This document shows positions 33,054-55,464 of a stretch of 64,000 nucleotides of DNA, one piece after another. The stretch covers positions 350,748 to 414,747 of the forward strand of contig JACPKY010000002.1 of NCBI GenBank assembly GCA_016186795.1, written 5' to 3'. The position numbers and the translations under genes are program-made. How positions within the stretch are numbered: position 1 is the first letter of the stretch; each line of letters begins with the position of its first letter. The DNA comes from Candidatus Gottesmanbacteria bacterium. GTDB lineage: Bacteria; Patescibacteriota; Microgenomatia; 2-02-FULL-39-11. The notes beneath the pieces were generated by a model. It searched no databases and was not told the DNA's origin. It saw only the letters and a program-made list of their open reading frames with translations.

Positions 33054-33056
33054 TAT

Positions 33057-38841: not shown

Positions 38842-39968
38842 GCGTATTTTCGGATTATAGCAGCTATTACTTCTATTTCCTCGTTTCTCAAAAATACTGA
38901 AGATGGAAGACTTACTCCATGACGAGAGAGATAATTTGAGACTGGAAATTCACCTTTCATTCTATAAGGTGGAAGTATGTGAAGAGGATAAAAAAACGGG
39001 CGAGTTTCAATATTTTCTTTACCGAGATTCTTCATAAGCTTATCGGAAGTCAGAGAATATGGTTTACGAACAAGGATAGAGTACATCCAATAAACACTTC
39101 TTTCACCCGCTTTTCTTGGATGGGGTATGATCCCCGGAATATCTTTTAATTTCATGGTATATTTTTGAGCAATCAAAACTCTTTTTTGCAAAAACTGATC
39201 AATTCTTTCAAGTTGAGCACATCCAAGAGCAGCTTGGATATTCGTCATACGATAATTAAATCCAACAACTGAATGATAATACTGTCTCTTTAAGTCCTGT
39301 CCATGGTTCCGAAGCATTCTCATCTTCTCCACTAAGCTAGAATTATTTGTCGTTATCATTCCTCCCTCACCGGTAGTTATTATTTTATTTCCATAAAAAC
39401 TAAAACACCCGACATCGCCAATCGATCCTACTTTTTTCCAATTTGTCTTATTTTTATTCTTTAAACTGACCTCGGCTCCGTGTGCTTCTGCTGCATCCTC
39501 AATAATTTTTAAATTGAATTTTTGTGCAATCGGTATAATACTTTCCATATCTGCTGGTCTCCCGTATAAATGGACAACGATTATTGCTTTCGTATGCTTT
39601 GTCACTTTCTTCTCCAGCATTTGTGGAGAAATTCCCCATGACGAGTCGTCAACATCAATAAAAACCGGAGTGGCTCCAGTAAAAGTTACCGCATTTGCTG
39701 TTGCCACAAATGTTAAATCTGGAATGAGCACTTCATCTCCTTTTCCAATCCCCAATCCAACAAGTGATAAATGGAGGGCAACTGTTCCATTTGACACAGC
39801 TATTGCATACTTAGTGCCTATATATTTTGCAAATTGTTCTTCAAACTTGGTGATAAAATTCCCTTTGGAGGAAATCCACGATGAGGAAAGGCATGACTCT
39901 ACATACTTCGCCTCGTTTCCGTGTAAATCGGGGTGAGCAATTGGTATAAATGCTCTTTTCTGCTTCAT
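38838..39968 (-). CDS. DegT/DnrJ/EryC1/StrS-family PLP-dependent sugar aminotransferase
   Basis: DLHGNEAKYVxxCLSSSWISSKG...AIAVSNGTVALHL, and the catalytic-lysine region FSFYGNKIITTGEGG. Confidence 0.9.
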   Translation of the reverse strand: MKQKRAFIPIAHPDLHGNEAKYVESCLSSSWISSKGNFITKFEEQFAKYIGTKYAIAVSNGTVALHLSLVGLGIGKGDEVLIPDLTFVATANAVTFTGATPVFIDVDDSSWGISPQMLEKKVTKHTKAIIVVHLYGRPADMESIIPIAQKFNLKIIEDAAEAHGAEVSLKNKNKTNWKKVGSIGDVGCFSFYGNKIITTGEGGMITTNNSSLVEKMRMLRNHGQDLKRQYYHSVVGFNYRMTNIQAALGCAQLERIDQFLQKRVLIAQKYTMKLKDIPGIIPHPRKAGERSVYWMYSILVRKPYSLTSDKLMKNLGKENIETRPFFYPLHILPPYRMKGEFPVSNYLSRHGVSLPSSVFLRNEEIEVIAAIIRKYA

Positions 39969-41566
39969 GATTTGGGCTTGAGGATAAAGACGTGAATCGA
40001 TCGAAATCGCTCTCTTGATAGAACTGTATAGTTTGAGAGGAATTGATACTTACGTTCCTGCCACTTTGCAATATCTTCGTTTTTCCCTCGGGAATCTATC
40101 AGAGAAAGTAAAACAGTATACTGCGGAGATTCCTTTTTTAGAGATGACCTGTAAAGCCAAGCAAAATAACTATCCATGTATGAGCTGACTGGTGTTCCAA
40201 TTGTATATTCAGAAAGATACCTATACCCTCCAAATCGAGGACACTCTCCAACTGCTTCCAGCGAATAAGTACTGTCTCCTATATATGCACGAACGTATGA
40301 AAGTGCGGCAATTTTCTCTTGATACGAATAGCTGGAATAGGATGTGAAGAGAGTTATTGAGTTTTGCACAATAAAAATAGTAAGAAAAACGATACCTGCC
40401 ACTTTCCCTTCTTTTTTCTTCCATATACGATCGAGAAGATAGGCAAGAATAAGGGCAAAGTAAGGAAAGAAGTAAAGTAAATAGTACTCATAGAATCTCC
40501 GTGTAAACAAAAAAAGCACTATCCCTGTTATAAAAAGAATTCTGTATATATGAACGCAAAAAAGATACTCCAACCTTCCAAAAAGTTGTTGTCGTCTGTT
40601 TCTTCTCATTTGAAAAAAGAGAAAGAGAAATACTCCTAAAGACAGAAGAGAGATAGTCCATATCTCCGGTGGTGCAATTCTCTGTATCGCAGAAAGTTCT
40701 TTGCACTGACCAGTTTCAACAAACATATCACTTGATGCTGGCATCCACAAAAATCTTCCTAGTGAGGAGACAAAAATACCCAGACGGTCAGAAAGTGTAG
40801 AGATAGAGTTCCCTGGTGAGGTTTGAATAATTAGATGAACAAGTGCACGAGTATTCGTAAAATTATGGCGAAGATCAAAAAGAATAATGGAAAGTTGTAG
40901 GGCCAAAAAAATTCCAATAGATAAAAGTGCTGCTTTTTGTGAAATATGTTTCCGCTTACTCCATAAGACAAGGAAAATTAACGGAGCAAATACAACAAAC
41001 GAAAGATGGCTTTGAATACCAAGTCCAAATACTAACGCCAGAAGTAGTAGATACTTATAAGTATTGGTAGAAAATTTTACAAGGATATACCCCATAAGCA
41101 CTGACAAAAGGGGTATTGGAGTAGGATTCCAAAAGTTCCTATCATAATAAGAAGCTAAAAAGGAACAACCATAAAGGAGTGCTCCTATGAAACCAACACG
41201 TTCGGAAAATAAAGATCGACCCACATGGAAAATAAGGTATGTCGTCAATACTCCAAGAATGGATGCGGTAATTCCCCACCCCACGGGATTTCCATCAAAA
41301 AGGGCGAAGGGAATAGCGGCAAAGTAAATAAACGCAGGCCCCAGATACAAACCTGTATCTGAAGCATTTACTCCAATAAGAGGAAAATGGCGAAATGAGA
41401 CAATATTCTTTACAATAAAAGCTTCATATTCTTGATCCATTCCAAAAAAGAGAAAACTTTGGAAGTTATAAAAACGAAATAAAAGACTTGCACCAAGAAG
41501 AAAAAGTAGCCAAAGTTTTTTCTTTTTTGTAAAAACCGTGGAAATTTTCTGAAATTCCTTAGACAT
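39965..41566 (-). CDS. Polytopic membrane protein, candidate GT-C-like glycosyltransferase
   Basis: 533 aa, more than 12 TM helices, an acidic first-loop segment (FFGMDQEYEAF) and a C-terminal soluble domain. Confidence 0.4.
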   Translation of the reverse strand: MSKEFQKISTVFTKKKKLWLLFLLGASLLFRFYNFQSFLFFGMDQEYEAFIVKNIVSFRHFPLIGVNASDTGLYLGPAFIYFAAIPFALFDGNPVGWGITASILGVLTTYLIFHVGRSLFSERVGFIGALLYGCSFLASYYDRNFWNPTPIPLLSVLMGYILVKFSTNTYKYLLLLALVFGLGIQSHLSFVVFAPLIFLVLWSKRKHISQKAALLSIGIFLALQLSIILFDLRHNFTNTRALVHLIIQTSPGNSISTLSDRLGIFVSSLGRFLWMPASSDMFVETGQCKELSAIQRIAPPEIWTISLLSLGVFLFLFFQMRRNRRQQLFGRLEYLFCVHIYRILFITGIVLFLFTRRFYEYYLLYFFPYFALILAYLLDRIWKKKEGKVAGIVFLTIFIVQNSITLFTSYSSYSYQEKIAALSYVRAYIGDSTYSLEAVGECPRFGGYRYLSEYTIGTPVSSYMDSYFAWLYRSSLKKESPQYTVLLSLIDSRGKNEDIAKWQERKYQFLSNYTVLSRERFRSIHVFILKPKS

Positions 41567-41605
41567 TTATTTCATTATAGCAAGTTATAGAAAAAACCAC
41601 TTTTT

Positions 41606-43171
41606 TTATTTCCCTTTACCTCTGTCAGTTACATAGGTAAGCAAAAAGGTGACCAATGAAATTATTGTAACCAACCAAAGGAAAATCGAGTATACACCTT
41701 TAAAAAACCATGGCTTGTACTGACTTACTTGTGTAAGGAAAATGGAAAAGGAAGAGATATCATAATATGTTTTTGCGATGGTGTATAAAGCATAGATATT
41801 TAAACAAATCATCAAGAGAGATAAAATAAAAATACTCCACGTATGAAGAGTACTATTGAAAGAAAAAAGTTGTCGCCATCCTATAAGAAGTATAACCATA
41901 TAGATCGAAATCGTAGGAAATAGGTACCTTCCTTGCACTCCCAAAACGTATCCTCCGGTATACCAGGAAAACCAATCGTAGTAAAAAATACTTGCGATGT
42001 ATACAAAAGCAACTCCCGCAAGAAAAAGGAGTGATTGGACTCTTCGGGAATACCACATCTTTCTTTTTACAAAGATAAAAAATGCAGGAATTAGTCCAAC
42101 AACTGCCACAAAAACTATGCGATTTATAATTCTGTGAATAGAACGAGGGTATGTCACTCCTAACCAATCATAAATGCCCCAAAACCAAGGCATTACCTCT
42201 CTTACGCTATGAGGTAGAGAATACTCCCATGTAAATTTCAATAAACTTGAAATATTATTTGTCTTCATAAACTGATCAATAAGTCCTACTGATCCAAAAT
42301 TTTTCTTGTATAACAAGATAAAGACCGCACAGATGATAAATGGAAGTATTATGACTCTTTTTGAAAAATCTTTTCGTCGTAAATCTCGAACGGCTACAAA
42401 GAAAAATAGAAGTACAACGAGAGGAAGTGTAATAATAAACTGAGGTTTCGAAAGGACACAAAAAAGAGAAGAAATAGAAAGAAATAACGCTCTATTCAGA
42501 TTAATCCCTTTTAATACCATAAGTGTTCCCGCAATAAGAAAAACAATGAAAAGAAAATTTCCCAGCGCATCACTATTTACTCCAACATTGGCAAATATCA
42601 TCATCGGCTGGAATCCTACGAGGGCAGCAATAGCGATACTTTCTTGGGTTTTTTGAAAAATACGCTTTGCAAGAGAGTAGGTGATATATATGGTACCCAT
42701 AAAAAGGAATAAGGACCATATACGTGTTGTGACAACTCGAGTAAAAAGGTCAAAGTGGTAGAAAAATTTATAAAAAAAACTTGCTGGAATATAGTACAGA
42801 GGAGGGTACCGGGTGGATTCGCGATGAACCAACTGTTTTCTTGTGTCCTCTTTTGATAAAGCTGCTAGGCTTGCCTCATACATACCATAGAACGAATCGG
42901 TATATTCAATCCGATATTCAGGATGGTGAGTAAAACGATTCTTTCCCAAATTATCCCGAAACGTACCTAAGAGTATTTCTGACGTATAGACTTCTTGTGT
43001 AAGATCGTTTTCTTCATCAATTGGCATACGTCCATTTTCAGCAAAAAAAGCTACTTGTCCAAAATGTGCTTGTTCATCAGGAAAATGCCAGAGTGGCACC
43101 AGGGACACCCATACCAGTGCATTGAAAAATACTGCGAGGAAAAAACTTGTCATTATCCTTGGGCGAACCAT
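41606..43171 (-). CDS. Polytopic membrane protein, DUF2142-like (GT-C-like)
   Basis: N-terminal WHFPDEQAHFGQV motif (the PDExAH pattern remembered for DUF2142) right after TM1, then multiple TM helices. Confidence 0.45.
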   Translation of the reverse strand: MVRPRIMTSFFLAVFFNALVWVSLVPLWHFPDEQAHFGQVAFFAENGRMPIDEENDLTQEVYTSEILLGTFRDNLGKNRFTHHPEYRIEYTDSFYGMYEASLAALSKEDTRKQLVHRESTRYPPLYYIPASFFYKFFYHFDLFTRVVTTRIWSLFLFMGTIYITYSLAKRIFQKTQESIAIAALVGFQPMMIFANVGVNSDALGNFLFIVFLIAGTLMVLKGINLNRALFLSISSLFCVLSKPQFIITLPLVVLLFFFVAVRDLRRKDFSKRVIILPFIICAVFILLYKKNFGSVGLIDQFMKTNNISSLLKFTWEYSLPHSVREVMPWFWGIYDWLGVTYPRSIHRIINRIVFVAVVGLIPAFFIFVKRKMWYSRRVQSLLFLAGVAFVYIASIFYYDWFSWYTGGYVLGVQGRYLFPTISIYMVILLIGWRQLFSFNSTLHTWSIFILSLLMICLNIYALYTIAKTYYDISSFSIFLTQVSQYKPWFFKGVYSIFLWLVTIISLVTFLLTYVTDRGKGK

Positions 43172-43175
43172 AGCA

Positions 43176-44279
43176 TTACCTTTTTTTTGTTCCTATTATC
43201 GAAACACCATGATCTTGGAAATTTGCAGGCGCTTCGATACCAGGAATTGCATAAGCATCGAATTTTTCATCACGAAACCATTTGATAACCTCCTGATACG
43301 TATGATGCCAATCAAATTTTATTGCAAATTGATCATAGATAATTAACCGATGTTCTCTCATATTAAGATTAAGATAGAACGAATCACCTCTGTTTAGAAA
43401 ATTTCTGAAGTTATGAAATAAGCGCATGAGAAAAACCCAAACATAGGAAAATATATAGATACCTCCTGAACCAAAAGGAGTAAGAGCATACCGCAACATC
43501 CGATTTATGGTGTAAACAGTCCGATTATAGAGGCTTTTATTCTTAACATATAGCCAGATATAAAACTTCCCGCTTTTCCTTACAAGCGGAGTTAATTTAT
43601 TGAAGGATTTTTTAGTGGAAGAAGTATGGTGGAGTACACCGTTTGAGTAGATGATGTCAAATACATTTTTCCTAAACGGAGGGTTCTCAACACTACCTTG
43701 GATAAAATGGATCCGCTCTCTCCCTTTCATTTTCTTTTTTTTGCAGAAGGAAGCACAAGTATCGACACCAGAAGTAATATCCATAGCAACAACTTGTCCT
43801 TCCGTTTTTAGAAAAGCAATTGATGTTACGCCATTACCACATCCAGCATCAAGCACCCATTTTCCCTTAAGGTTAGAAGACCCAATATGAAAAATCCGTT
43901 TTAAATCTTTTACTATTTGCTCTCCTTTCACACCCCACACAGATAATCCTTCAATTTGATACGAATGAAGTTTACTCCAATGTCTCGAGAATGTTTCAAT
44001 ATTTACTGTCTCATATTCCTTTGTAGAAGGAAATGATAGGTTTTTGATAATCGTTTGAATCCGTTTTTGATATTTTTTTTCAAATTGAAGATTCCGATAT
44101 CCGATGAGGAGTCTTGGAATGCCATTGATGATCGGATAGTAGTACTTTCTGGCCTTGGGAATAAGAATTCCAGATATGACATCTTCCGATTTGCCTTGTC
44201 TTTTGGATTTGAATACATGAAGAATAAAAGGCTGATACGTTTTTGGATCAGAAATAATTGTGAGAAGAACTTTATACAT
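43176..44279 (-). CDS. Class I SAM-dependent methyltransferase with an N-terminal extension
   Basis: Motif I WVLDAGCGNGVTSIAF and the post-I motif. Confidence 0.65.
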   Translation of the reverse strand: MYKVLLTIISDPKTYQPFILHVFKSKRQGKSEDVISGILIPKARKYYYPIINGIPRLLIGYRNLQFEKKYQKRIQTIIKNLSFPSTKEYETVNIETFSRHWSKLHSYQIEGLSVWGVKGEQIVKDLKRIFHIGSSNLKGKWVLDAGCGNGVTSIAFLKTEGQVVAMDITSGVDTCASFCKKKKMKGRERIHFIQGSVENPPFRKNVFDIIYSNGVLHHTSSTKKSFNKLTPLVRKSGKFYIWLYVKNKSLYNRTVYTINRMLRYALTPFGSGGIYIFSYVWVFLMRLFHNFRNFLNRGDSFYLNLNMREHRLIIYDQFAIKFDWHHTYQEVIKWFRDEKFDAYAIPGIEAPANFQDHGVSIIGTKKR

Positions 44280-45235
44280 TATGTTCTCCCTCTATGTTTC
44301 ATAACAATTGGAATACCTAAAATTGAATAAAAAAATCCAGCAGAAAAAAAGAGGGGACCAACCCTTTCAACAATCCAACGCTGAATAAATGGATAGCGAA
44401 AGAGAGTGAGGGGGCAAAGGAGGAAAGAAATTATCGTGTAGAGGAGAACTTTTAAAATGAGGGTAACTTTTTTGGAGAAAGGTGTGGCAGTATTTCTCGC
44501 AAAGTATGATTGACCAGACGCAAATAAGCGCTTGAGTCGATAGTGAATAGTCATTTTATAGGGGTGGATAAGATGGTAGACAATTGCCCCTGGTGTATAG
44601 TAAAGGGAAGGTGGTCTCGGACCATTTTCCCACATTCTCTCAAATAATTTTGTTTCTTCTCCAACTGCAATGATGTCTCCTTTCATATCAATAGACTCAT
44701 CAAACCCTCCAAAAATGTGTATGGCGTCTTTTTTGAAAATCATGTTTGGGCCAGAAAATGCTTCACCGCCTTTTAAAAATCGTGGAGTATCTCCTTTGAT
44801 GTCAGCCTCATAGTTGTCATTAAACCAAGCAGGCTTTTTTGTCTGGTAGTAAGGCACAACTGGACCAGAAACAGCCTGGGGAGTCGGCTTCACATGGTCA
44901 AAGCAATACAAAGCATTTTTAAGCCAATTTTTGTCTGCCTTCGCATCATCATCAATAAAAGCAACATAGAGGCTTTTGAGTTTTTTCACAATTACATTTC
45001 TGGAATTGGCAAGTCCAACATTCGTTTTCTTTTTGTAGTATTTAATAACTGGTATCCTTACTTTTTTTTGTAGCTTACCTATTGTAACTTGTGTATCATC
45101 AGTAGAACCATCGTCAATAACAACTATTTCAAAGAGAGAGGGTGAGATTGTCTGATGCAAAAGACCCTGAATTGTTTGCATGAGAAGCTCGGATCTATTA
45201 TATGTACATACCACAACGGATAGAATTGGATTCAT
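44279..45235 (-). CDS. Glycosyltransferase family 2
   Basis: LSVVVCTYNRSELL...IVVIDDGSTDDT signature. Confidence 0.8.
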   Translation of the reverse strand: MNPILSVVVCTYNRSELLMQTIQGLLHQTISPSLFEIVVIDDGSTDDTQVTIGKLQKKVRIPVIKYYKKKTNVGLANSRNVIVKKLKSLYVAFIDDDAKADKNWLKNALYCFDHVKPTPQAVSGPVVPYYQTKKPAWFNDNYEADIKGDTPRFLKGGEAFSGPNMIFKKDAIHIFGGFDESIDMKGDIIAVGEETKLFERMWENGPRPPSLYYTPGAIVYHLIHPYKMTIHYRLKRLFASGQSYFARNTATPFSKKVTLILKVLLYTIISFLLCPLTLFRYPFIQRWIVERVGPLFFSAGFFYSILGIPIVMKHRGRT

Positions 45236-45238
45236 AAC

Positions 45239-46183
45239 TCATGGAACAAATGTTTTTATACCTCTTTTCAGTTTTCCTATTAATTGATTTTGCAAATTAT
45301 ATCCTTTCTGCAAACTGATCGTTCTCTTTTCTTTGGAAATGTTCCTATTTTCCCACTGGTGTATTTTTGTCGTCATGTAGGGAAAGAATTGATATTTTTC
45401 TAAAATAAGATTTCTTGCGTTTGCAACGTACTTCAAATTTTTTTTCCATATATCACTTTTTATGATCTTATTGAGTTTCTCAATACAGTCTTTGTCATTA
45501 ATATCTATGGAAACAAACGATTCTTTTGGGAAAAAATCAGTGATATTCGTACAACCAAAGTATATAGGCATAGTAAAAGCAAGATAAGCATCAGAAAGCT
45601 TTTCACTCCAATAATAGGGACCGCTATAGTTTTCTACAACAAGTGTATACCGGTAAGGGGCAAGTCCCTCCCATTTATCCGCAATCTCTTTAAACCCAAA
45701 CCCATATAAATCAAAATGTACCCTTCCTTTTATTTTTTCCAAGAATCTCATTCGATCTCTGTGTCCTTGGAAACTCATCTTTTTACTCGTTATAAAAGAA
45801 ACATTCCGAGTTTTTGAAGGCATCTTCATTTTTTTTAGCGCATCGTAATCCCGATCTATAAGCCAAGGAGTCGCTGGCTGACTCAAAATAAATTTCTCTC
45901 CGTGGAGCGATGTATCTTGGGTAAAAATTCTGTGATAATTCTTATCAAAAGAAAGAGCGTATTTGAAAAATTCATTCGGTGGTTCCTGAACTAAACACCA
46001 AACATTTTTAGGGTAGCTTCGGACTTTTACACTTTCCTTGGGATAATTTAAGACCAAAACATAGTCGTATTCTTCAATTGGATCAAGGGTAAACCTTACA
46101 TCATCCCAAATTCCCAGCGACTTTGGAGTTTGACGCAGGATATTGGGATCTTCCCAGTTTTTAATTATGCGTACATATTTCAT
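45239..46183 (-). CDS. Putative alpha-1,3/4-fucosyltransferase-like protein (GT10-like)
   Basis: C-terminal segment YRYTLVVENYSGPYYWSEKLSDAYLAFTMPIYFG resembles the GT10 motif (FYLAFENS...YVTEK...G.VPVV.G). Confidence 0.4.
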   Translation of the reverse strand: MKYVRIIKNWEDPNILRQTPKSLGIWDDVRFTLDPIEEYDYVLVLNYPKESVKVRSYPKNVWCLVQEPPNEFFKYALSFDKNYHRIFTQDTSLHGEKFILSQPATPWLIDRDYDALKKMKMPSKTRNVSFITSKKMSFQGHRDRMRFLEKIKGRVHFDLYGFGFKEIADKWEGLAPYRYTLVVENYSGPYYWSEKLSDAYLAFTMPIYFGCTNITDFFPKESFVSIDINDKDCIEKLNKIIKSDIWKKNLKYVANARNLILEKYQFFPYMTTKIHQWENRNISKEKRTISLQKGYNLQNQLIGKLKRGIKTFVP

Positions 46184-47088
46184 ACTTTTCGAAGAAAGAG
46201 CATAATACCACCTTGTGGATCGGGATTTCGAAGGGATTGTGGGATATTTCTATAAAAGCCGGGAATATTTTTCACAGCCTTTTTCCCTTCAACATCTTTT
46301 CTGGTAGCTCGTTTTCCAAGTAAACTATAGTTAGCTTTTACAATTTTGAATTTTTTTGTTATGAGAGACACTCTCCCCTGATCGTAAATACGATGAATAT
46401 TGTAGACAACCGTTGGATAGCCATAGGGTATAGTAACGATAGCATGCCCGTTTTTTTTAAGAATTCTGTGAATTTCATCCATTGTCTTTATATCACCGTT
46501 TGTATCCTGAGGGTCACCGTATCTACCAAGTCCTACATGTTCTAGTGTAGAAATTATAGTAACAATATCAACAGAATTTGAGGGAAGATTTGTATCCTGA
46601 CAATTACCGAAGATATATTCAATACCAAATCTTGATCTGAAAGGAAAATGAAGGACATCAATTGAGAGAAGCCTCTCATATGGAAGTTTTAAAAGGAAAG
46701 GTAAAATGGTAGACATACTTCCCCCTCCTCCCAAGTCAACAATTGTCTTTTTCTTTACAGTTCTATTTATCAAACAATCCGCTTGGAAGATATACTCGAA
46801 TTTGCGCAAATGGTCACCGGCATAGGCGTCCCTCAAATACTTTTTTACACCTTGGTACGTATGTTCCCCATATTTTTCCCTTATCTCATCTTGAAGCTTT
46901 TCTATAAACGTATCTCTTCTCCAAAGGACATATGAAGCAGCCACCTTTTTAACCAAAGGTGGTATATATTTTCCAATAGAGAGCTTGTCAGCAAACGACC
47001 GCTCATCAATAAGAAAATAAATCAGTTCTGCACGTTTTTTAGGACTAAATTTATATAAAAAATCTGTTGGCTTTATAGTCTTACCCAT
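46180..47088 (-). CDS. Putative SAM-dependent methyltransferase (class I, divergent)
   Basis: Gly-rich motif VDLGGGGS and post-I-like DIVTIISTLEHVG...LKKNGHAIVTIP. Confidence 0.4.
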   Translation of the reverse strand: MGKTIKPTDFLYKFSPKKRAELIYFLIDERSFADKLSIGKYIPPLVKKVAASYVLWRRDTFIEKLQDEIREKYGEHTYQGVKKYLRDAYAGDHLRKFEYIFQADCLINRTVKKKTIVDLGGGGSMSTILPFLLKLPYERLLSIDVLHFPFRSRFGIEYIFGNCQDTNLPSNSVDIVTIISTLEHVGLGRYGDPQDTNGDIKTMDEIHRILKKNGHAIVTIPYGYPTVVYNIHRIYDQGRVSLITKKFKIVKANYSLLGKRATRKDVEGKKAVKNIPGFYRNIPQSLRNPDPQGGIMLFLRKV

Positions 47089-47942
47089 GTTGGAGGAAGG
47101 ATGTCCTTGCTATTAAGAGTTGGCGTACGAAACCACTTCTCTGGCCCAATAACTATTTTTCCCTGTGAGAGCCATGCAGCCCACCAACTGAATGTACTAT
47201 TGGCAATTATATGATATTTGCACGCACTCATCAGTCGGAAATCCTCATACTCATCAATAGCATCGTTAAAATCAATGTATGTAAATACACCTTTAGGTTT
47301 GAAGTATTTTTTTACCCAATCGATACTATCAGAAAAAATATAGAAATGGGGATTCTTTACTTTCCTTTTTATAAATTCGACTGCTTTATAATAATAATCT
47401 AGAGATAACACCCCATGAATTATATTTGCTTTTACATGCTCCATGTAATCACCTCGACGAAAATGGATCGATACTGCGTGACTTTTTGGAATTTTCTTCA
47501 GAACTAGTCGATTCTTGTAAGAAGGGGGGGATTTAGGAGTGAATTCTTTGAGAAGGACTGGTCGAATTTCTTGGAAATACTTTTCGCTTTGCCAGAAACC
47601 TGATAGATAGCTATTGTCCGAAACCGTCAGAATTCTTTTATCAAAAGTGAATGCCTTTTCATAAAAAATATTGGGAAACATAGTTTCAAAAAAAATTTTA
47701 ACTTTGCGAAGAAATATACGCGGCACATAATATCCCCAGCCTAAGATAAACCTTAGGTCATCCTTTGAGGCAAAATCTTCTACAATATTAAATTTATGAA
47801 GTCTGTATGGATATAAATGTTGCTTTTTAAATTCGGTTAAATCTATTTTGAGCTGTGTATTACAGACTATAGCTAGTTTCTTTCCAAGAGCATACTGAAA
47901 CATCTGATTGCCCAACCCACCCATTAATTCAGTGATAATCAT
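47073..47942 (-). CDS. Alpha-1,2-fucosyltransferase (GT11)
   Basis: N-terminal GGLGNQMFQYA motif and HFRRGDY motif, both diagnostic for GT11 alpha-1,2-FucTs (FutC/WbsJ-like). Confidence 0.85.
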   Translation of the reverse strand: MIITELMGGLGNQMFQYALGKKLAIVCNTQLKIDLTEFKKQHLYPYRLHKFNIVEDFASKDDLRFILGWGYYVPRIFLRKVKIFFETMFPNIFYEKAFTFDKRILTVSDNSYLSGFWQSEKYFQEIRPVLLKEFTPKSPPSYKNRLVLKKIPKSHAVSIHFRRGDYMEHVKANIIHGVLSLDYYYKAVEFIKRKVKNPHFYIFSDSIDWVKKYFKPKGVFTYIDFNDAIDEYEDFRLMSACKYHIIANSTFSWWAAWLSQGKIVIGPEKWFRTPTLNSKDILPPTWVRL

Positions 47943-47947
47943 ATAAT

Positions 47948-49249
47948 TTAGTAAGAAAGTAAACTTTTATACTTTGCCAATCTCTTTTCTATTATCTCCA
48001 TACTTGTATCCTTATCATCTCTTTCTACAAAAAGACTTAAATTTAACATAGTAATAATCTTTATCACACTAGCTTTGAACTTATATTTTAGGCCTTTATA
48101 TTTTTGATTGCGTAAATATGCCTCAATGATTTCTTTTGTGCCTGTCTTTTCTTGAGAGTTTTGTTTGGCAGTTGCTAAAAATTTCGCTAATCCTTTTATA
48201 GGGTCCCCCTTTTTGAGAAAATGATTCACAGCCCAATTTCGAAGCTGAATATACGTATTTTTATTTGATTTCAACATTCGTAAAAGTTCTTCTTTCGTTT
48301 TCGCTTTTGGCACGTATCCGTACCACTCTCCTATTAGATCTTTCGGTAGCGGAAACGGCTCTAGCATAAGTATTGGTTTTTTTGCAATTGCTGCTTCAAT
48401 GAGACTCGTAGAGAAGGAAGAAACGACAATATCGCTTGCAAGTATCCAATCTCGAACGGTGTAGTCTTTGAGAATGTGTATTCTTTTTCCAAGTTCTGGC
48501 TCGAATTTTTGTACGGTTTCTAAAAACGTAGTATAGGAAGTGGCCGGTCGTGGCCGGATAATAATTTCTACATTGTCACTTTTTTTTAGAAATCGTAACC
48601 AATGGAGCACCTCGATAAGCGATTTACCGCAATAATCTCTCATTTGATAGACAGCTTTCCTGTCTTGGCCATTTTTTATTATCTCTTCAATCAAATGGTC
48701 AGAGTAAAAGTACCAAGAATAATTCTCTGGGAAAAATATCCATTTTTTCCGTTGGTCTATATCAAATTTTTTCCCTAAGATTTCTCTTGACGCGAATACT
48801 TTCCTGTATGGAGGGAAATAAAGGTAGTAAGCTGGTTGACCATTCACGAATATGTGGCTCTCTGGGACTCCTCTATCCTGTAAGAATATCGCCCGCTGTT
48901 TACTCCACGCATGATGGAGAACGCATTTCTTCGCAAAAGAGTCTCGAGGTGCTTTATATTCAATGTTTGCTCTATAAAATACTTGTTCCCAGGAAAGATT
49001 TACAAATGTTGCATCGTTCCAAGATGAAAGGTAATGTTTGAGTCCAGAATCATGTATGGAGTAACAATACGGTAAAAGAACAATTGTGGGATGAAATTGT
49101 TGAGTAAAAGAGGTAGGACGGGGATGGAAAAAGGGGAGAATCTTTACCTTCTTTTGATATTTTGATTCCAAAAGTGCTGTGGTTGCACAAGCTACGTCAA
49201 GTTCTCTCGCAAAGTGTTCAATAAACCAGACAATATCTAATTTCTCCAT
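47948..49249 (-). CDS. GT-B-fold protein of the KpsC/KpsS/TagF-like type (CMP-/CDP-activated donor transferases)
   Basis: IIRPRPATS ... ILASDIVVSSFSTSLIEAAIAKKPILML resembles the HP....NS/T-x-G-x-E-A...G-KP-v core of Capsule_synth/TagF-like enzymes. It is paralogous in pattern to 60269-61915 and 62806-end. Confidence 0.4.
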   Translation of the reverse strand: MEKLDIVWFIEHFARELDVACATTALLESKYQKKVKILPFFHPRPTSFTQQFHPTIVLLPYCYSIHDSGLKHYLSSWNDATFVNLSWEQVFYRANIEYKAPRDSFAKKCVLHHAWSKQRAIFLQDRGVPESHIFVNGQPAYYLYFPPYRKVFASREILGKKFDIDQRKKWIFFPENYSWYFYSDHLIEEIIKNGQDRKAVYQMRDYCGKSLIEVLHWLRFLKKSDNVEIIIRPRPATSYTTFLETVQKFEPELGKRIHILKDYTVRDWILASDIVVSSFSTSLIEAAIAKKPILMLEPFPLPKDLIGEWYGYVPKAKTKEELLRMLKSNKNTYIQLRNWAVNHFLKKGDPIKGLAKFLATAKQNSQEKTGTKEIIEAYLRNQKYKGLKYKFKASVIKIITMLNLSLFVERDDKDTSMEIIEKRLAKYKSLLSY

Positions 49250-51180
49250 AGTCGATGTATTGTCTGCTGGATGGTATTGCTATCAAGGCCTAAATACTTT
49301 AATACCTCTTCTCTAAATCCGGTTTGTGGAAAATCTCTCAAAGCAATATGCTCAACACGAGGAAACTGTATGCCATGAATAGTAAGATAGGCAAGTAAAC
49401 TCTCTCCAAATCCTCCTTTTTTATAGTGATCTTCAACAATGAGAAGCGGAATGCCACGTTTTGAAGCATCAAGCAACTGCTTTCTATCAAATTCTATCAA
49501 CCACGGCTGATTCCAAACTTCAACAGATATTCCATCTCTTTCCAGATTGATAGCAGCAACTATCGATTCGGCGATAACAACCGGACCGATTCCAATAACA
49601 AGAATATTTTTCCCTTCTCGTAAAATATGAGCTTTTCCCTTTTCCAGATTTTTGGAAGGTGTATTTAATTCTACTTTTCCAGAAGCCATAGACAGCCGCA
49701 CATACAAAATGTTTCCCAGCTCATTATTGAAATAACGTCCGAGAACGTTCTCTACATCTTTCGGTGTTATTGGTTGATACATGGTAACACCTGGAATATT
49801 TTTTATACAGGCAATATCACGAAATGCCTGATGTGATTTTCCGGGTGTTGCCGGAATTACCCCGGACATATTTCCGACAATAATCGCCTTTCCACCCTCA
49901 GTTGCAAGATTATAAAGTTGCTCATTCGCTCGTGAAGTGAGAAACGCAGCATAGGTAGAAACAATCGGTATTGTCCCTGATCTTGAAAACGCAGCTGCTG
50001 TTGAAACCATGTGCTGCTCCATAATCCCCATCTCAAAAAACCGTGTGTGATTTCTTTTATGGAATTCTACAAACCCTGAGTCTTCCTCAAGGTCTCCATC
50101 GAGCGTTACAAATTGATACTTTTTTGCAAAGTCTAAAAGAGCATCTGAAAATCCTGTAATAAGACTTGAACCACGCACATCTTTTTGCATTGGCTCTTTC
50201 GGAATATCCTTAAGTGATAAACTTAAATCAATGACGAAGCCAAAACTACTCATTAAATCCTTCACTCTTTTATAAATTTCTCTTAATGCCTGGTCTAACT
50301 GTTTCCTGTCAGGAGCTTTGTTGTGCCATATATATCGATCTATTTTGCTTTTTAAAACATTAGGATGCTCCATGTAAGAAACACCTTGACCTTTCACGGT
50401 GCGCATATAGAGTAATTTCGGTTTCTTTGACTTTGCAAGTTTCATGAATCCATCATGGATATTTTTAATCTTTTTACCGTTTTTTTCTACGACAGTAAAA
50501 CCAAGGGACGACAGTGTATGTACTATATCGTTATACTTAAGAATATTTTGAGTGAACTGGTCCGTCTGAACGCTATTATCATCAATAATGATGTAGAGGT
50601 TATCTACTTTGAAACTTACTGCCGAAAGAAGCGATTCCCACAATTGACCCTCTTGAAGTTCTCCATCTCCAACAATCACGATGACGCTTCCTTTATACCC
50701 CATACGCTTTTTAAAAAGTGCGAAACCAACAGCTTTTGAAATTCCCATAGCAAGGGATCCCGTGTTTGCTTCAATTCCAGGAGTTTCAATATCACAATGT
50801 CCGGAAAGACCATGAAGACGGCGCAACCGGTTAAGATTTTCGATTGGAAAGTAGCCTTTTGCAGAAAGTGTAGCATAAAGAGATGGGACGGCGTGACCTT
50901 TGGAAAGGATAAAAATATCTCTGTCTTTGGAGGAACTCTCTTTGGGGGAAAAGGAAAATGATCGAAAATATATTTCTGTAAGGAGTTCAATGATGCTAAG
51001 GGAAGCTCCCAGATGTCCAGTCCCTGCCCTTGCTACACTAAGTAGTGTATTGTATCGGATCAAATCTGCGATGGCACTCAAAATCTTTGCTTTTCCTTTT
51101 CCTCCCTGAGATTTTTTTTCAAGAAAGAGAAAACTTTCTTGGGAAATAAAACCTAGATTATTTAATAGATTCATAATCAA
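49237..51180 (-). CDS. Transketolase-like enzyme with N- and C-terminal sections fused (647 aa), the second transketolase in the locus
   Basis: TPP-binding N-terminus (ARAGTGHLGASLSIIELLTEIYF, GSLAMGISKAVG), then pyrimidine-binding and C-terminal domains. Confidence 0.8.
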   Translation of the reverse strand: MIMNLLNNLGFISQESFLFLEKKSQGGKGKAKILSAIADLIRYNTLLSVARAGTGHLGASLSIIELLTEIYFRSFSFSPKESSSKDRDIFILSKGHAVPSLYATLSAKGYFPIENLNRLRRLHGLSGHCDIETPGIEANTGSLAMGISKAVGFALFKKRMGYKGSVIVIVGDGELQEGQLWESLLSAVSFKVDNLYIIIDDNSVQTDQFTQNILKYNDIVHTLSSLGFTVVEKNGKKIKNIHDGFMKLAKSKKPKLLYMRTVKGQGVSYMEHPNVLKSKIDRYIWHNKAPDRKQLDQALREIYKRVKDLMSSFGFVIDLSLSLKDIPKEPMQKDVRGSSLITGFSDALLDFAKKYQFVTLDGDLEEDSGFVEFHKRNHTRFFEMGIMEQHMVSTAAAFSRSGTIPIVSTYAAFLTSRANEQLYNLATEGGKAIIVGNMSGVIPATPGKSHQAFRDIACIKNIPGVTMYQPITPKDVENVLGRYFNNELGNILYVRLSMASGKVELNTPSKNLEKGKAHILREGKNILVIGIGPVVIAESIVAAINLERDGISVEVWNQPWLIEFDRKQLLDASKRGIPLLIVEDHYKKGGFGESLLAYLTIHGIQFPRVEHIALRDFPQTGFREEVLKYLGLDSNTIQQTIHRLWRN

Positions 51181-51934
51181 GTGTGAAAGGCGTGTGTAAA
51201 ATTTTTGGCAATGTTGCTTTTCCCTCCTTTATAAGCCGCTGGGCATAGTACCAATCATACTCCGTGTTCACATCGACTCCTTCATCATCTTTGGTAAAAA
51301 ATGGCATGATTGCCTCTCCCGAAATAGAATGGTGTTCAAATACACATCGAGTTTTTGCAATCTCCAAACTTGCATTCTGCATATACACTTCTGGAAGAGA
51401 TGGGTACTGAAGACTGTGCCAGAGAATACCTTTTTTATGAGGATTTTCCATGACGGGTTTCATTCGATTTTTTTCCTTATCCACAATCCACATTTTCGCT
51501 GGATGATGCGTGGTTTTCTCTACCGCACGAAGAGAATCTACGTTTGGATTATTAAGGATCATATTCCATGCTCGCTTAAGTGTTTCTGGTTTTCTAAAAG
51601 GACTAGTTGGTCTTAAAATTGCAAAATAGTCATATAACTCTCCTTTTTCTCTCAAAAATTGAAGAGTGTAGGATATCCACTCGATATCAGGAGATGTTTC
51701 TTGGGCAAATTCAGATGGGCGTAAGAATGGAACATCTGCTCCATAATATCTCGCAACATCTGCATAGAGTTTACTATCCGTTGAAACAATAACTTTTGAG
51801 AAAATGTTTGACTCCAAAGACGATACTATACTGTATGCAAGGAGTGGATGGCCATACAGTTCTCTGATATTTTTGTGTTTAATTCTCTTCGAACCGGACC
51901 TTGCAGGAATAAGAGCTATGCAAGAATGTTTCAT
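51158..51934 (-). CDS. CMP-sugar synthetase (acylneuraminate/pseudaminate/Kdo cytidylyltransferase family, CTP_transf_3)
   Basis: N-terminal IALIPARSGSKRIKHKNI motif typical of NeuA/PseF/KdsB-like cytidylyltransferases. Confidence 0.85.
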   Translation of the reverse strand: MKHSCIALIPARSGSKRIKHKNIRELYGHPLLAYSIVSSLESNIFSKVIVSTDSKLYADVARYYGADVPFLRPSEFAQETSPDIEWISYTLQFLREKGELYDYFAILRPTSPFRKPETLKRAWNMILNNPNVDSLRAVEKTTHHPAKMWIVDKEKNRMKPVMENPHKKGILWHSLQYPSLPEVYMQNASLEIAKTRCVFEHHSISGEAIMPFFTKDDEGVDVNTEYDWYYAQRLIKEGKATLPKILHTPFTLDYESIK

Positions 51935-51945
51935 ATGATTCTCTT

Positions 51946-53955
51946 TTACTTATAACCTCTCTTGCCGATTTTCACCAGAACATATGAACTATTCTGAATT
52001 ATTAATTTGGCATTGTTCGTTTCGATGAGTTTTTGAATATAAGTATCGGGATTTATCGATAATTCTGAAGTGTCTATAAGTAAATAAACCGGATCATTCT
52101 TTATCTCAAAGACCATGTTTTGAAGTAACCTTTCATTTTCAGGATATAATACTAGATTTTCAATGATCTTTTGTCTTTGGGCATATTGAGAATGTCCTTG
52201 GATGTATAAATCTGATGTTTTGGCGAAATAAATTCTTCGCTGCACGATTGCGCTCAAGAGTTCTTGTTGTCTTGGCAAAGCGGCAACAATGGCGTTAGGT
52301 TCACTATTTTTTCTTATCCATACTGCTACTTCCTCCAATTTTCTATCTGTGGAAATGATCTTCGTACCCTGACTCTCAATGCCTGATGGAAACTGCTGAC
52401 GAGACGACGTATATGCGACGAGTATAAAAAGATACTGAAGAAAAGTGAAAATGAAAAAACCATAAAGAATAATCTTCTTAACTTTCTTTCCAAATATATT
52501 CGCATTATGCTCAATACCCTTGATAGTGAGGATAGAGAGAGGAATACTGGAAAGAAAAACAAATTTATATTGGTTATTATCCGGTAAAAGAAGAAATATA
52601 CTCAAAGAGAATAGCACAAAAAAAAGAACCGCTAGTGCAAAAAGTTTGATGGAGTTACTCTTGCCTATCATTGCCTTTAAACCATCATATGCAAAAGGAA
52701 GAAAGAGAAGATAGGTGAACTGGAAATCTAATAGAGAATATACCCGAAACGATAATCCAATATTAAATTCCTTAAATGCTTGCTGAATAGGTTGGATATA
52801 GGGATATATTAGAACAGAAACTGTTAAAATCGAGGCAAGTATGAAAAGAGATGTTTTCTCCGGTAACATGGAAGCTTTTTTCAAGGAGCCGAATATATCA
52901 ATAAGAGCAAAAAAGAATAAGAAAATTACAGCTGGAATGAATGAGACGGGATGAAATAAAGCCAAACCCAGAAGAGTTATGAAAAGAGGGATCACTAGTT
53001 TTCGTATGGGAAGCTCAGTTAACTTTACAATGATTAGAACTAAGGTGAGATTCAAAACAAATCCAAGTCTGAATCCATCAATACTCAGAAATTTATGGAC
53101 AAGGTCTAGCAATCGCCCGTCAACAGGAAATATCTTAGCGATATTCGTGATCGCACTAGGATCTAGAGTTTTAAATGTACTATAAATACCTGGATTTCTT
53201 ATTAATCTCACTAAAAAAACAGTCCCATTATATAATCCTGGTCCCATCACCAAAAGGAAAGCACCAAGAATTTGTAGACTTGAATTTTGAACAAAATTTC
53301 TTGAGAGTAAAAATCCAATGGTAAAGACAGAAAATATTGACATCAAACCAACAATTACGCTGACTTGCAACGCTGACATATTGAGAATAATTGATCCAAC
53401 GGCAAGATACAAAGAATACAACCAATATGTGTTTATGGGGATACCTGCCAGAGCAAAATGGTCAGGAGGTATGATACCATTCATAATTTGATAGACTATT
53501 GGCAAGTGTATGTTTCCTTCATAAGACTGTTGTACCCGTATAAATGACAAAGGTATTACAACCAAAGAAGATAAACAAAGCATAAGAACCAAAATTTCTT
53601 TTTCTTTAGCTAAGGATATGTACCTGGCCTGTTTCTTTGTAATTAAAAGATAGAAAGAGGAAAGAAGAGTATAAGCGATAATAGATCCAGTGGTGAAGGA
53701 AAGAGAAAAATGCATAAGGTAAGAAATGAAATAGCCCATTATAACAATCAAAGAGGAAGAAAGAGGGAAGGCAAGTGCACTTACTTCTAGAAGAGTCAAA
53801 TGAGATGGCACTGCAATGGCTAATAAATTAAATCCATTTAAGAAAAAGAGTACTGGCAATACATAAAGATTTGCTTGGAGAGAGAAAATTTTTTGGATAA
53901 TAAATAATACAAAAGAACAAATGAGCGAAATTATGACTATTCTCTTTACGGACAT
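51946..53955 (-). CDS. Polytopic membrane protein with a C-terminal soluble domain (candidate Wzy-like polymerase or GT-C)
   Basis: 669 aa, more than 12 TM helices, and a roughly 150-aa hydrophilic C-terminal domain. Confidence 0.4.
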   Translation of the reverse strand: MSVKRIVIISLICSFVLFIIQKIFSLQANLYVLPVLFFLNGFNLLAIAVPSHLTLLEVSALAFPLSSSLIVIMGYFISYLMHFSLSFTTGSIIAYTLLSSFYLLITKKQARYISLAKEKEILVLMLCLSSLVVIPLSFIRVQQSYEGNIHLPIVYQIMNGIIPPDHFALAGIPINTYWLYSLYLAVGSIILNMSALQVSVIVGLMSIFSVFTIGFLLSRNFVQNSSLQILGAFLLVMGPGLYNGTVFLVRLIRNPGIYSTFKTLDPSAITNIAKIFPVDGRLLDLVHKFLSIDGFRLGFVLNLTLVLIIVKLTELPIRKLVIPLFITLLGLALFHPVSFIPAVIFLFFFALIDIFGSLKKASMLPEKTSLFILASILTVSVLIYPYIQPIQQAFKEFNIGLSFRVYSLLDFQFTYLLFLPFAYDGLKAMIGKSNSIKLFALAVLFFVLFSLSIFLLLPDNNQYKFVFLSSIPLSILTIKGIEHNANIFGKKVKKIILYGFFIFTFLQYLFILVAYTSSRQQFPSGIESQGTKIISTDRKLEEVAVWIRKNSEPNAIVAALPRQQELLSAIVQRRIYFAKTSDLYIQGHSQYAQRQKIIENLVLYPENERLLQNMVFEIKNDPVYLLIDTSELSINPDTYIQKLIETNNAKLIIQNSSYVLVKIGKRGYK

Positions 53956-53975
53956 ATTTTTTCCTGGCTGTTTGT

Positions 53976-55439
53976 TTATACACGAGAGGGATTGTATTTA
54001 ATGTACACAGTTTTCCATTCGGAATAAACATCAAGTGCTTCTGTCCCTGGTTCTCTGTGACCGTTGCCTGACTTTCCTACACCTCCAAAGGGCAAATGTG
54101 GTTCGCTCCCAAAGGTAGGCCCATTCACTGATACCAGTCCAACCCGTACTCTATGTATAAATTCTTGTATTCTATGAATACTTCTTGTATGAATTGCAGA
54201 TGTCAAACCATAATCAGTTGCATTAACAAGTCTTACTGCTTCCTCAAAATTTTTCACCTTAAATAGACATGTCACCGGACCGAAGAGCTCGCTTTGAGAA
54301 ATGGATGCATCCACTTTTGCTCCTTCAACAATTGTTGGTTCTATAAAAAAACCATTTTTCTTCTCACCTTTGACCAACCTCTTTCCACCCGCAATTACAT
54401 TCGCTCCCTGGAGTACAGCATGATCAATCTCTACAAGAATTTTATTCATTTGACTCTCATTAATCACAGGTCCTACATCATCTTTATCACCTGATCCAAC
54501 TTTTAACTGTTTTGTTTTTTGCACAAATTCTCTTTTAAACTGATCATATATTTTTTCAAAAATGATGAGTCTACTCCCGGACGAACACCGCTGGCCAGCG
54601 TTTGAGAAAGCAGATAAGACAGCGTAAGAGACAGCATCCTTCATATCTGCATCATCACATACAAGAAAAGCATTTTTTCCCCCCAGTTCCAGACTCACTT
54701 TTGCAATCCTACCACCCGCAACTTTTGCGATATACTCACCTACTTCACATGAGCCGGTAAAACTTACGAGATCCACTCTATCATCCTCGACAAGCGATCG
54801 ACCAACCTCCTCTCCAGATCCTTGAACAACATTAAAAACTCCTTTGGGAAGTCCGGCTAGTTGCAATATTTTTGCAAACCAGACAGGTGTGAATGGCGTA
54901 TCTTTTGCAGCCTTCAACACACAAGTATTTCCACAAAGAAGTGCTGGAAATGCTTTCCAGGAAACATTGGCAATCGGTGTGTTAAACGGAACAATGAGTG
55001 CACAAACTCCTATAGGTTGACGCATTGTATATGCGAAGCGGTTAAGTACCGCTGAAGTTGTCGTCCTTCCATAAAACCTTCTTCCCTCCCCTGCCATAAA
55101 AAATCCAAGCTCAATAGCTCCTGAAACTTCCACAAGTGAATCTTTGAAAGATTTTCCAGTTTCGGAAGATACAATAAAAGCAATTTCCTCTCTTTTTTCT
55201 TGGAGAATCAAAGCTGCGGTTCTTAGTATATCGGCTCTTTGAATAACGGGAGTATATGCCCACCGAAAGAAATGATCAGAAGCATAAGTTACAGCACTAT
55301 CTACATCTTCGCCTGTCCCCTTTTCTATGCGCGCGACTACTTTTCCACTCGTTGGAGAGATTTTTTCAATATACTTTCTCGAAGTGCTTTCAACTTCATT
55401 CCCATTAATAAAATGATAAATTCGTGAAGGGTATTTCAT
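53976..55439 (-). CDS. NAD(P)-dependent aldehyde dehydrogenase
   Basis: ELGGKNAFLV (catalytic Glu region), the Cys region FSNAGQRCSSGSR, and EPTIV...ELFGPV ALDH motifs. Confidence 0.9.
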   Translation of the reverse strand: MKYPSRIYHFINGNEVESTSRKYIEKISPTSGKVVARIEKGTGEDVDSAVTYASDHFFRWAYTPVIQRADILRTAALILQEKREEIAFIVSSETGKSFKDSLVEVSGAIELGFFMAGEGRRFYGRTTTSAVLNRFAYTMRQPIGVCALIVPFNTPIANVSWKAFPALLCGNTCVLKAAKDTPFTPVWFAKILQLAGLPKGVFNVVQGSGEEVGRSLVEDDRVDLVSFTGSCEVGEYIAKVAGGRIAKVSLELGGKNAFLVCDDADMKDAVSYAVLSAFSNAGQRCSSGSRLIIFEKIYDQFKREFVQKTKQLKVGSGDKDDVGPVINESQMNKILVEIDHAVLQGANVIAGGKRLVKGEKKNGFFIEPTIVEGAKVDASISQSELFGPVTCLFKVKNFEEAVRLVNATDYGLTSAIHTRSIHRIQEFIHRVRVGLVSVNGPTFGSEPHLPFGGVGKSGNGHREPGTEALDVYSEWKTVYIKYNPSRV

Positions 55440-55464
55440 AAATTTTTAATTTTTATAAACGTAA

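Follow-up and report, generated by a model that had tools for sequence, protein, structure and literature searches.

A predicted fucosylation and fucose O-methylation module in a surface-glycan locus of a Candidatus Gottesmanbacteria bacterium

Introduction

In rhizobia, nodZ is responsible for fucosylation, noeI for methylation of the fucosyl residue and noeE for its sulfation (PMC4881576). In the nematode Caenorhabditis elegans, methylfucose is found only on alpha1,2-fucosylated bisecting galactose, and both the methyltransferase that modifies fucose and the alpha1,2-fucosyltransferases have been stated as still to be identified; lectins of fungal and animal innate immunity target the methylated fucose of nematodes (PMC7614267). 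Here we describe a bacterial gene cassette that appears to combine fucose transfer with methylation. It occupies positions 45239–47942 of a 64,000-nucleotide stretch of contig JACPKY010000002.1 of a Candidatus Gottesmanbacteria bacterium (the window; positions are counted from its first nucleotide), and consists of a glycosyltransferase gene of family GT11, a methyltransferase gene of the Pfam family DUF268 and a GT10-like glycosyltransferase gene. On balance, we lean towards reading it as a fucosylation and fucose O-methylation module, which would decorate a surface glycan with methyl-fucose rather than build a Lewis epitope.

An earlier note on this DNA, made from the sequence alone, had recognised the two putative fucosyltransferases, regarded the methyltransferase as bracketed by them, and compared the cassette with the enzymes that make Lewis antigens in Helicobacter. 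By themselves the two fucosyltransferase genes are unremarkable additions to known families; what the cassette adds is the methyltransferase between them.

Results and Discussion

Gene structure and families of the cassette

The three open reading frames (ORFs) all lie on the minus strand, at exactly the coordinates that the earlier note had given (Table 1). The GT11 gene overlaps the methyltransferase ORF by 16 nt, the stop of the latter overlaps the GT10-like start by 4 nt (ATGA), and a gap of 3 nt separates the GT10-like stop from the start of a GT2-family gene, which in turn overlaps a second methyltransferase gene by 1 nt. Judged by these overlapping or only 3-nt-wide junctions, the GT11, DUF268 and GT10-like genes are translationally coupled and make up a sub-operon of the surface-glycan locus, which exceeds 60 kb. 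A promoter and terminator scan of positions 37000–56500 returned counts at shuffle expectation and did not inform the operon boundaries.

The GT11 protein matches PF01531 far above the cutoff of 23.9 bits (E=1.4e-33). GGLGNQMFQYA is present at its N-terminus (residues 8–18, nt 47889–47921), followed by HFRRGDY (residues 160–166, nt 47445–47465), FYIFSDSIDW (residues 200–209, nt 47316–47345) and NSTFSWWAAWL (residues 248–258, nt 47169–47201). It therefore combines HxRRGD(Y/F) with further conserved motifs, which is what we take to define a GT11 enzyme, and the family call of the earlier note, based on GGLGNQMFQYA and HxRRGDY, stands. A PDB sequence search with this protein gave zero significant matches. 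The enzyme is predicted to transfer fucose, most likely in alpha1,2 linkage. PF01531, HxRRGDY and the other conserved GT11 motifs are shared with Helicobacter pylori FutC, Escherichia coli WbsJ/WbgL and FUT1/FUT2. Unlike the genes for those enzymes, the window gene overlaps a DUF268 methyltransferase gene, and we know of no GT11–DUF268 gene pairing described for a characterised GT11 enzyme.

The GT10-like protein matches HYW55_03135, annotated at NCBI as a "hypothetical protein", with 100% identity. Its residues 122–240 match PF00852, the GT10 C-terminal domain, above the gathering cutoff of 23.9 bits (E=2e-8), and PF00852 is carried by 119 of the 120 homologs listed for it. In the PDB its sequence matches H. 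pylori FutA (E=1.6e-7), a plant core alpha1,3-fucosyltransferase and mango FT13; all matches are GT10 enzymes, save one that is non-significant. A profile of 50 members of its clade retrieves solely GT10 fucosyltransferases from the PDB, led by FUT9 (9e-12), FutA (1.3e-10) and AtFucTA (4e-10). The AlphaFold2 model (predicted local distance difference test, pLDDT, 94.3; predicted template modelling score, pTM, 0.91) has H. pylori FutA with GDP-fucose as its best Foldseek match (2nzy, E=3.4e-9). Ranks 1–9 are filled by H. pylori FutA and human FUT9, then AtFUT11 and mango FT13, with generic GT-B structures below. Judged by sequence and predicted structure, the protein is a short GT10-like enzyme with a GT10-type fold. 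This placement, by profile and by closest solved structure, agrees with the resemblance to GT10 that the earlier note had seen in a C-terminal segment; the motif quoted there, ENYSGPYYWSEK...AYLAFTMPIYFG, is present within residues 179–210 (nt 45554–45649).

In FUT9, the GDP diphosphate and the donor are held by Arg202, Lys256 and Asn246 (PMC12717137). Arg202, Asn246 and Lys256 align with R144, N185 and K195 of the GT10-like enzyme; R144 lies in ITSKKMSFQGHRDRMRF (nt 45743–45793), and N185 and K195 lie, together with E194, in YTLVVENYSGPYYWSEKLSDAYLAFTMPIYFG (nt 45554–45649). Across the clade R144 and K195 do not vary, and at least 90% of members conserve N185. As the catalytic base we considered a glutamate of the N-terminal domain, corresponding to Glu137 of FUT9 and, as we take it, to Glu95 of the H. 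pylori enzyme. The candidate is E67 in VQEPPNE (nt 45971–45991), which is invariant in the 50 clade members, on a weak alignment: it faces E97 of FutA, in the "ENESP" region, only within a non-significant segment.

With H. pylori FutA/FutB (PDB 2nzw/2nzx/2nzy, 5zoi) the window protein thus shares PF00852 and the C-terminal nucleotide-sugar motif, which reads YTLVVENYSGPYYWSEK in the window and FNLCFENTQGYGYVTEK in FutA. The differences are considerable. Identity to FutA is about 17–18% and the TM-score about 0.47, the window protein has 314 residues as against 371–420 in the FutA chains in the PDB, and the N-domain motif is QEPP rather than ENESP. FutA also has C-terminal heptad repeats and an amphipathic tail, which are missing from the window protein. 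The genomic context is likewise unlike that of FutA: the GT10-like gene is followed by a conserved GT2 gene and preceded by one for a methyl- or sulfotransferase.

The product of the middle gene, named "DUF268 domain-containing protein" at NCBI, matches PF03269 (DUF268, "Caenorhabditis protein of unknown function") well above the cutoff of 25 bits and also matches Methyltransf_11 (29.3 bits). It contains a glycine-rich S-adenosylmethionine (SAM) loop, VDLGGGGS (nt 46717–46740), and the further motifs EHVGLGRYGDP (46510–46542) and PYGYPTVVYN (46399–46428). Its AlphaFold2 model (pLDDT 92.1) is matched in Foldseek by generic class I methyltransferases, with no close solved relative, and a PDB sequence search with the protein returned zero significant matches. 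By family and modelled fold, it is a predicted class I SAM-dependent methyltransferase of the DUF268 family.

DUF268 and GT10-like genes in other genomes

An exhaustive DUF268 profile search gave 2,660 clusters (at 50% identity) at E≤1e-10, only about ten of which belong to the full-length subfamily of about 300 residues. The surroundings of DUF268 genes were surveyed independently of the GT10-like genes in 80 metagenome loci, 35 of them non-redundant and flanked by 3 kb or more on both sides. In 24 of these 35 loci DUF268 has a fucose-related gene (GT11, GT10-like or Gmd/Fcl) within 3 kb, and 18 of the 24 have a GT11. In a Pfam census of 114 immediate DUF268 neighbours, GT11 came second (16) after the ubiquitous GT2 (18). 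With the neighbours of GT10-like genes as the control set, GT11 is enriched among immediate neighbours (16/114 against 2/158; odds ratio 12.7, p=3e-5) and, counted per locus, in the vicinity (18/35 against 9/83, p=5e-6), p-values which overstate independence because the link reduces to two deep lineages at 50% identity. At 70% identity it is present in 19 of 62 clusters. GT11 is downstream of DUF268 in 17 loci and upstream in 5, and in three loci (L118, L130 and L133) Fcl directly abuts DUF268.

The GT10-like clade was surveyed in 80 species-representative loci, together with earlier non-redundant loci. It is a large bacterial group of proteins of 310–335 residues, about 17% identical to FutA, and its range takes in the candidate phyla radiation (CPR), Chloroflexota, Cyanobacteria, Bacteroidota, Planctomycetota, Desulfobacterota, Proteobacteria and one methanogen. 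A GT2 gene directly follows the GT10-like gene in 43 of 78 loci, and homologs of the window's own GT2 adjoin GT10-like genes in about 20 loci. Directly upstream, about a third of the 80 loci have a sugar-modifying enzyme: a sulfotransferase in 10, an FkbM methyltransferase in 8 and a Methyltransf_11/Methyltransf_23 enzyme in about 10, including 5 of DUF268. The survey thus delimits a large GT10-like bacterial clade in which the GT2 partner is fixed, while methyl- and sulfotransferase partners replace each other.

Upstream sulfotransferases with a PRTGSHWL P-loop were seen in L006, L018, L024, L029 and other chloroflexotal and cyanobacterial loci, which points to sulfation, not methylation, of the fucosides there.

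The arrangement in the window recurs among its CPR relatives. Four of them (L001, L009, L012 and L093) share the order GT11, DUF268, GT10-like, GT2, and further on DUF2142, PMT_2, DegT and Wzx. The first four genes are contiguous in L001 and L093; in L009 and L012 an extra GT2 gene stands between GT11 and DUF268. The DUF268 methyltransferase is therefore an integral part of the cassette and not a passenger: more than bracketed, as the earlier note had put it, DUF268 is a recurrent partner of GT11 and GT10-like genes.

A proposed fucosylation and methylation module

In the module that we propose, GT11 would take fucose from a GDP-sugar and add it, most likely through an alpha1,2 bond, to a growing lipid-linked glycan. 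The GT10-like enzyme, with the GT2 encoded directly downstream, would place a second fucose at a different position, and the DUF268 enzyme would O-methylate a fucose residue or the fucosylated disaccharide. The Wzx flippase and the GT-C-type transferases (PMT_2, DUF2142), encoded just downstream, would then export and attach the glycan. The recurrent partnership of DUF268 with GT11 and GT10-like genes is what leads us to predict methylated fucose rather than a Lewis epitope. The activities of the cassette enzymes, with their donor, linkages, acceptors and methylation target, are predictions throughout.

NodZ is a GT23 enzyme and NoeI is of the FkbM type. Like the rhizobial nolK-noeL-nodZ/noeI (2-O-methylation)/noeE system, the window cassette encodes predicted fucosyltransferases and a putative fucose-modifying enzyme, and the GT10-like clade, with its methyltransferase or sulfotransferase neighbours, displays the same choice as noeI and noeE. 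Unlike the rhizobial system, the window has transferases of GT11 and GT10 and a methyltransferase of DUF268/Methyltransf_11, in place of GT23 and FkbM, and the proposed substrate is a lipid-linked surface glycan, whereas that of the rhizobia is a lipochitooligosaccharide. The cassette would thus functionally resemble Nod-factor decoration by analogy, but is no member of that system.

We infer GDP-L-fucose as the likely donor of the GT11 and GT10-like enzymes. A ManC-like gene is present at 12843–13925, as the earlier note had indicated, with NTP_transferase and ManC beta-helix domains; it scores 235 bits against the TIGR01479 cutoff of 373, because the phosphomannose isomerase domain is missing. 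In other organisms the GT10-like clade is found beside genes for GDP-fucose synthesis: gmd and fcl lie within about 6 kb of GT10-like genes, on the same strand, in a Phycisphaerae metagenome-assembled genome (MAG), in Pontibacter and in a Bacteroidetes MAG. In Methanocorpusculum petauri, gmd is followed after about 0.9 kb by fcl, which directly adjoins a GT10-like gene and, right after it, a GT11 gene; this locus is the clearest natural tie of the GT10-like clade to GDP-fucose synthesis. M. petauri is a cultured archaeal methanogen, and its locus (L086:1009–7582) packs genes for ManC, Gmd and Fcl together with GT10-like and GT11 into about 6.6 kb.

Closer to the window, an Fcl ortholog is encoded on the same contig as the cassette in the CPR relatives L002 and L009, and the data suggest the same for L012, for which the Fcl look-up gave a different assembly, and for two more relatives. 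The Fcl orthologs of cassette-bearing CPR relatives are 59–64% identical to Fcl from complete gmd-fcl operons. The short-chain dehydrogenase/reductase (SDR) encoded beside Fcl in CPR relatives was considered as a Gmd and ruled out; it is an Fcl-like paralog. This paralog, of 340 residues, follows the GDP-L-fucose synthase gene (L173:5043–6065, L174:4964–5986) and is about 32% identical to Fcl. Since the neighbour of Fcl is such a paralog and not a canonical Gmd, we take a supply of GDP-fucose in the CPR lineage as tentative. Within the window, an SDR at 33844–34830 had been put forward in the earlier note as a possible stand-in for gmd/fcl. That suggestion fails: the protein scores 62.8 bits against a gmd cutoff of 415 and 75.2 bits against an fcl cutoff of 500, is 22–23% identical to E. 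coli Gmd and Fcl, and has a LegB-like 4,6-dehydratase as its best match.

Several observations weigh against the module as proposed. No Gmd or Fcl ortholog is encoded in the window and the 8.8 kb by which the Logan contig L091 extends it, about 73 kb in all; the earlier note had already seen no obvious pair in the window, and model scores and identities bear it out, with generic SDRs as the best matches in this region (at most 24% identity, and at most 32% to the relatives' Fcl-like paralog). A Gottesmanbacteria Fcl probe (L002:422–1378, which has 34% identity to E. coli Fcl over the full length and keeps its catalytic residues) had none of its best 120 matches, all at least 68% identical, in the 1,118,283-bp contig that encodes HYW55_03135. 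The CPR relatives, for their part, pair Fcl with the Fcl-like paralog in place of a canonical Gmd. In the GT10-like protein of the window, the equivalent of FUT9 Asn195 is Lys134, where the clade consensus is Asn. The DUF268–GT11 link collapses at 50% identity to about two deep subfamilies, and gene adjacency is compatible alike with methylation of fucose, of the acceptor sugar or of another site.

The absence of gmd and fcl (wbcJ) from the 73 kb around the cassette also counts against the Lewis-type alternative, in which a GT11 alpha1,2-fucosyltransferase and a GT10 alpha1,3/4-fucosyltransferase make a Lewis b/y-type epitope on galactose–N-acetylglucosamine (Gal-GlcNAc) and the methyltransferase is unrelated. 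What backs this alternative is family membership: both the GT11 and the GT10 family are confirmed, the solved structure closest to the GT10-like model is H. pylori FutA, and the many other glycosyltransferases of the cluster leave room for a Gal-GlcNAc acceptor. Yet the GT10-like clade is shorter than FutA and distant from it in sequence, it has conserved GT2 and modifier partners of its own, and membership in GT10 does not fix an alpha1,3/4 linkage to GlcNAc, acceptors in this family being diverse and including those of core alpha1,3-fucosyltransferases and of the protein O-fucosyltransferases FUT10/11 (PMC11949838). Of the many GT2 and GT4 enzymes encoded in the window, none reaches the curated score of a model for enzymes that form type 1/2 lactosamine. 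The methyltransferase, moreover, is translationally coupled to both fucosyltransferase genes and belongs to a family tied to fucose genes, while futA, futB and futC of H. pylori are presumably non-adjacent and have no associated methyltransferase. An environmental CPR bacterium has no evident reason to mimic a host. Of the fucosylation cassette described in the earlier note, then, the GT11 and GT10-like families are retained, whereas the Lewis-like analogy is given up for want of recognisable lactosamine genes and in view of the coupled methyltransferase; we hold a Lewis-type product to be very unlikely.

Two further alternatives touch the donor and the methylation target. The transferases might use another GDP-6-deoxyhexose or sugar (colitose, D-rhamnose, 6-deoxytalose or one made by the cluster itself), so that no fucosylation module would exist here. 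The missing gmd/fcl orthologs again speak for this, as do the CPR relatives with no canonical Gmd beside Fcl and the presence in the cluster of the ManC-like gene, DegT, SDRs, a C-methyltransferase and transketolase-like proteins; GT11, furthermore, includes a GDP-colitose transferase, WbgN of E. coli O55. But colitose, D-rhamnose and 6-deoxytalose also need Gmd, which is equally missing, relatives with the same cassette have Fcl orthologs close to those of gmd-fcl operons, the GDP-binding residues are conserved in the GT10-like clade, and to our knowledge every characterised GT10 enzyme uses GDP-fucose. A donor other than GDP-fucose therefore seems quite unlikely. Alternatively, the fucosyltransferases may be rightly assigned and DUF268 may methylate the acceptor hexose, a different residue of the repeat unit, or a sugar that ends the chain at its non-reducing end and controls glycan length. 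At least five other methyltransferases in the cluster indicate that methylation is widespread in the glycan, in several loci DUF268 or GT10-like genes have ABC-transporter and Wzt_C genes beside them, which fits terminal capping, and nematode glycans carry methyl groups on galactose and mannose besides fucose. Against this stands the composition of DUF268 surroundings, which are enriched in GT11, GT10-like and Fcl/Gmd genes and not in glycan genes generally, together with L118 and L130, where Fcl abuts DUF268 with no fucosyltransferase match nearby. We consider methylation away from fucose rather unlikely, and retain the fucosylation and fucose O-methylation module as the reading that we favour by a little.

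DUF268 in nematodes

The C. elegans DUF268 family has 11 members, and the nematode proteins, of 310–380 residues, mostly have signal peptides or anchors (PMC3534327). Nematode DUF268 genes occur in glycogene clusters with GT11 fut-2 homologues, sulfotransferases and methyltransferases (PMC7614267, including the Figure S15 legend). The window protein scores above the cutoff of the Pfam model, which was built on the nematode family. When the two are compared through this profile, only the core aligns (profile positions 60–144 of 176), and the N-terminal signal peptide or anchor typical of the nematode proteins is not seen in the bacterial one. Among the long representative DUF268 matches, the ten examined were all bacterial or metagenomic, with no nematode-type protein.

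The bacterial linkage of DUF268 with GT11 makes DUF268 a candidate fucose O-methyltransferase family. The broader proposal is that DUF268 is the missing family of fucose or fucoside O-methyltransferases, acting in bacteria together with GT11 and GT10-like enzymes, and that the Caenorhabditis paralogs make 2-O-methylfucose on alpha1,2-fucosylated galactose. We advance it tentatively, as something that could well be true but that we would sooner doubt than assume; the argument is one of guilt by association. Our literature searches found no paper assigning a function to DUF268 or naming a fucose methyltransferase. For the open nematode methyltransferase question, the bacterial linkage supplies a short list of testable candidates, and the bacterial DUF268 protein may be a soluble candidate enzyme for the production of methyl-fucosylated oligosaccharides.

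The glycan locus and its other genes

Table 1. Genes of the cassette and the two genes that follow it on the minus strand
Predicted product	Position	Strand	Length and family match
GT11-family glycosyltransferase, predicted alpha1,2-fucosyltransferase	47073..47942	-	289 aa; PF01531 116.9 bits
DUF268 class I SAM-dependent methyltransferase, predicted fucose/fucoside O-methylation	46180..47088	-	302 aa; PF03269 67.9 bits
GT10-like GT-B glycosyltransferase, predicted fucosyltransferase	45239..46183	-	314 aa; PF00852 34.6 bits
GT2-family glycosyltransferase, conserved downstream partner of the GT10-like gene	44279..45235	-	318 aa; PF00535 88.1 bits
Second SAM-methyltransferase	43176..44279	-	367 aa; Methyltransf_11 59.7 bits

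The window is a nearly co-directional array of minus-strand genes, in which scans for tRNA and Rfam families gave zero matches. According to Pfam and NCBIfam annotation, its left end carries housekeeping cell-wall and replication genes (mraW, PBP, Mur ligase, RecO), and the glycan locus runs from about 12.2 kb past the right end of the window. The locus contains a priming Bac_transf enzyme, the ManC-like gene, about 17 GT2, GT4 and other transferases, a Wzy_C protein of 1046 residues and Wzx, together with membrane proteins of GT-C type (PMT_2, DUF2142, DUF2079), at least six methyltransferases and a carbamoyltransferase. Through L091 the cluster extends at least 8.8 kb beyond the right end, with PglF/E/D-like genes, a C-methyltransferase and another SDR, while extension at the left end gave only a short contig of cell-wall genes. 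Positions 12182–64000 and L091 together make one nearly one-stranded glycan locus, which exceeds 60 kb and takes up at least 5% of a CPR genome of roughly 1.1 Mb.

A set of genes for a nonulosonic acid of legionaminic or pseudaminic type is dispersed through the locus (33844–34830, 38838–39968, 51158–51934, 55465–56259 and 56256–57320). Its members are a LegB-like dehydratase, a LegC-like aminotransferase (384 bits, below the cutoff of 420), a PseF-like cytidylyltransferase, a PtmA-like SDR and NeuB. Transketolase-like genes are found at 32124–33959, split into N- and C-terminal halves, and at 49237–51180, fused (647 residues). Each adjoins sugar-nucleotide genes, and the fused one is kept in the relative L001. 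A carbamoyltransferase of NodU/CmcH type at 58430–60265 suggests O-carbamoylated sugars, and is a parallel to Nod-factor decoration.

The second methyltransferase of Table 1, whose gene is part of the same closely packed operon, has an N-terminal Trm112-like segment (Trm112_arch, NCBIfam NF038101; 24 bits, residues 1–58) fused to its class I methyltransferase domain, and is conserved in the closest relative, L001 (ortholog at 704 bits). Two large ORFs, at 51946–53955 (669 residues) and 60269–61915 (548 residues), have no Pfam or NCBIfam match and are both kept in the Logan contigs L091 and L092. The only plus-strand genes of the cluster are those at 29752–31425, for a DUF6798 membrane protein, and at 34851–35747, for a Methyltransf_23 methyltransferase; they break an array that is uniformly on the minus strand elsewhere.

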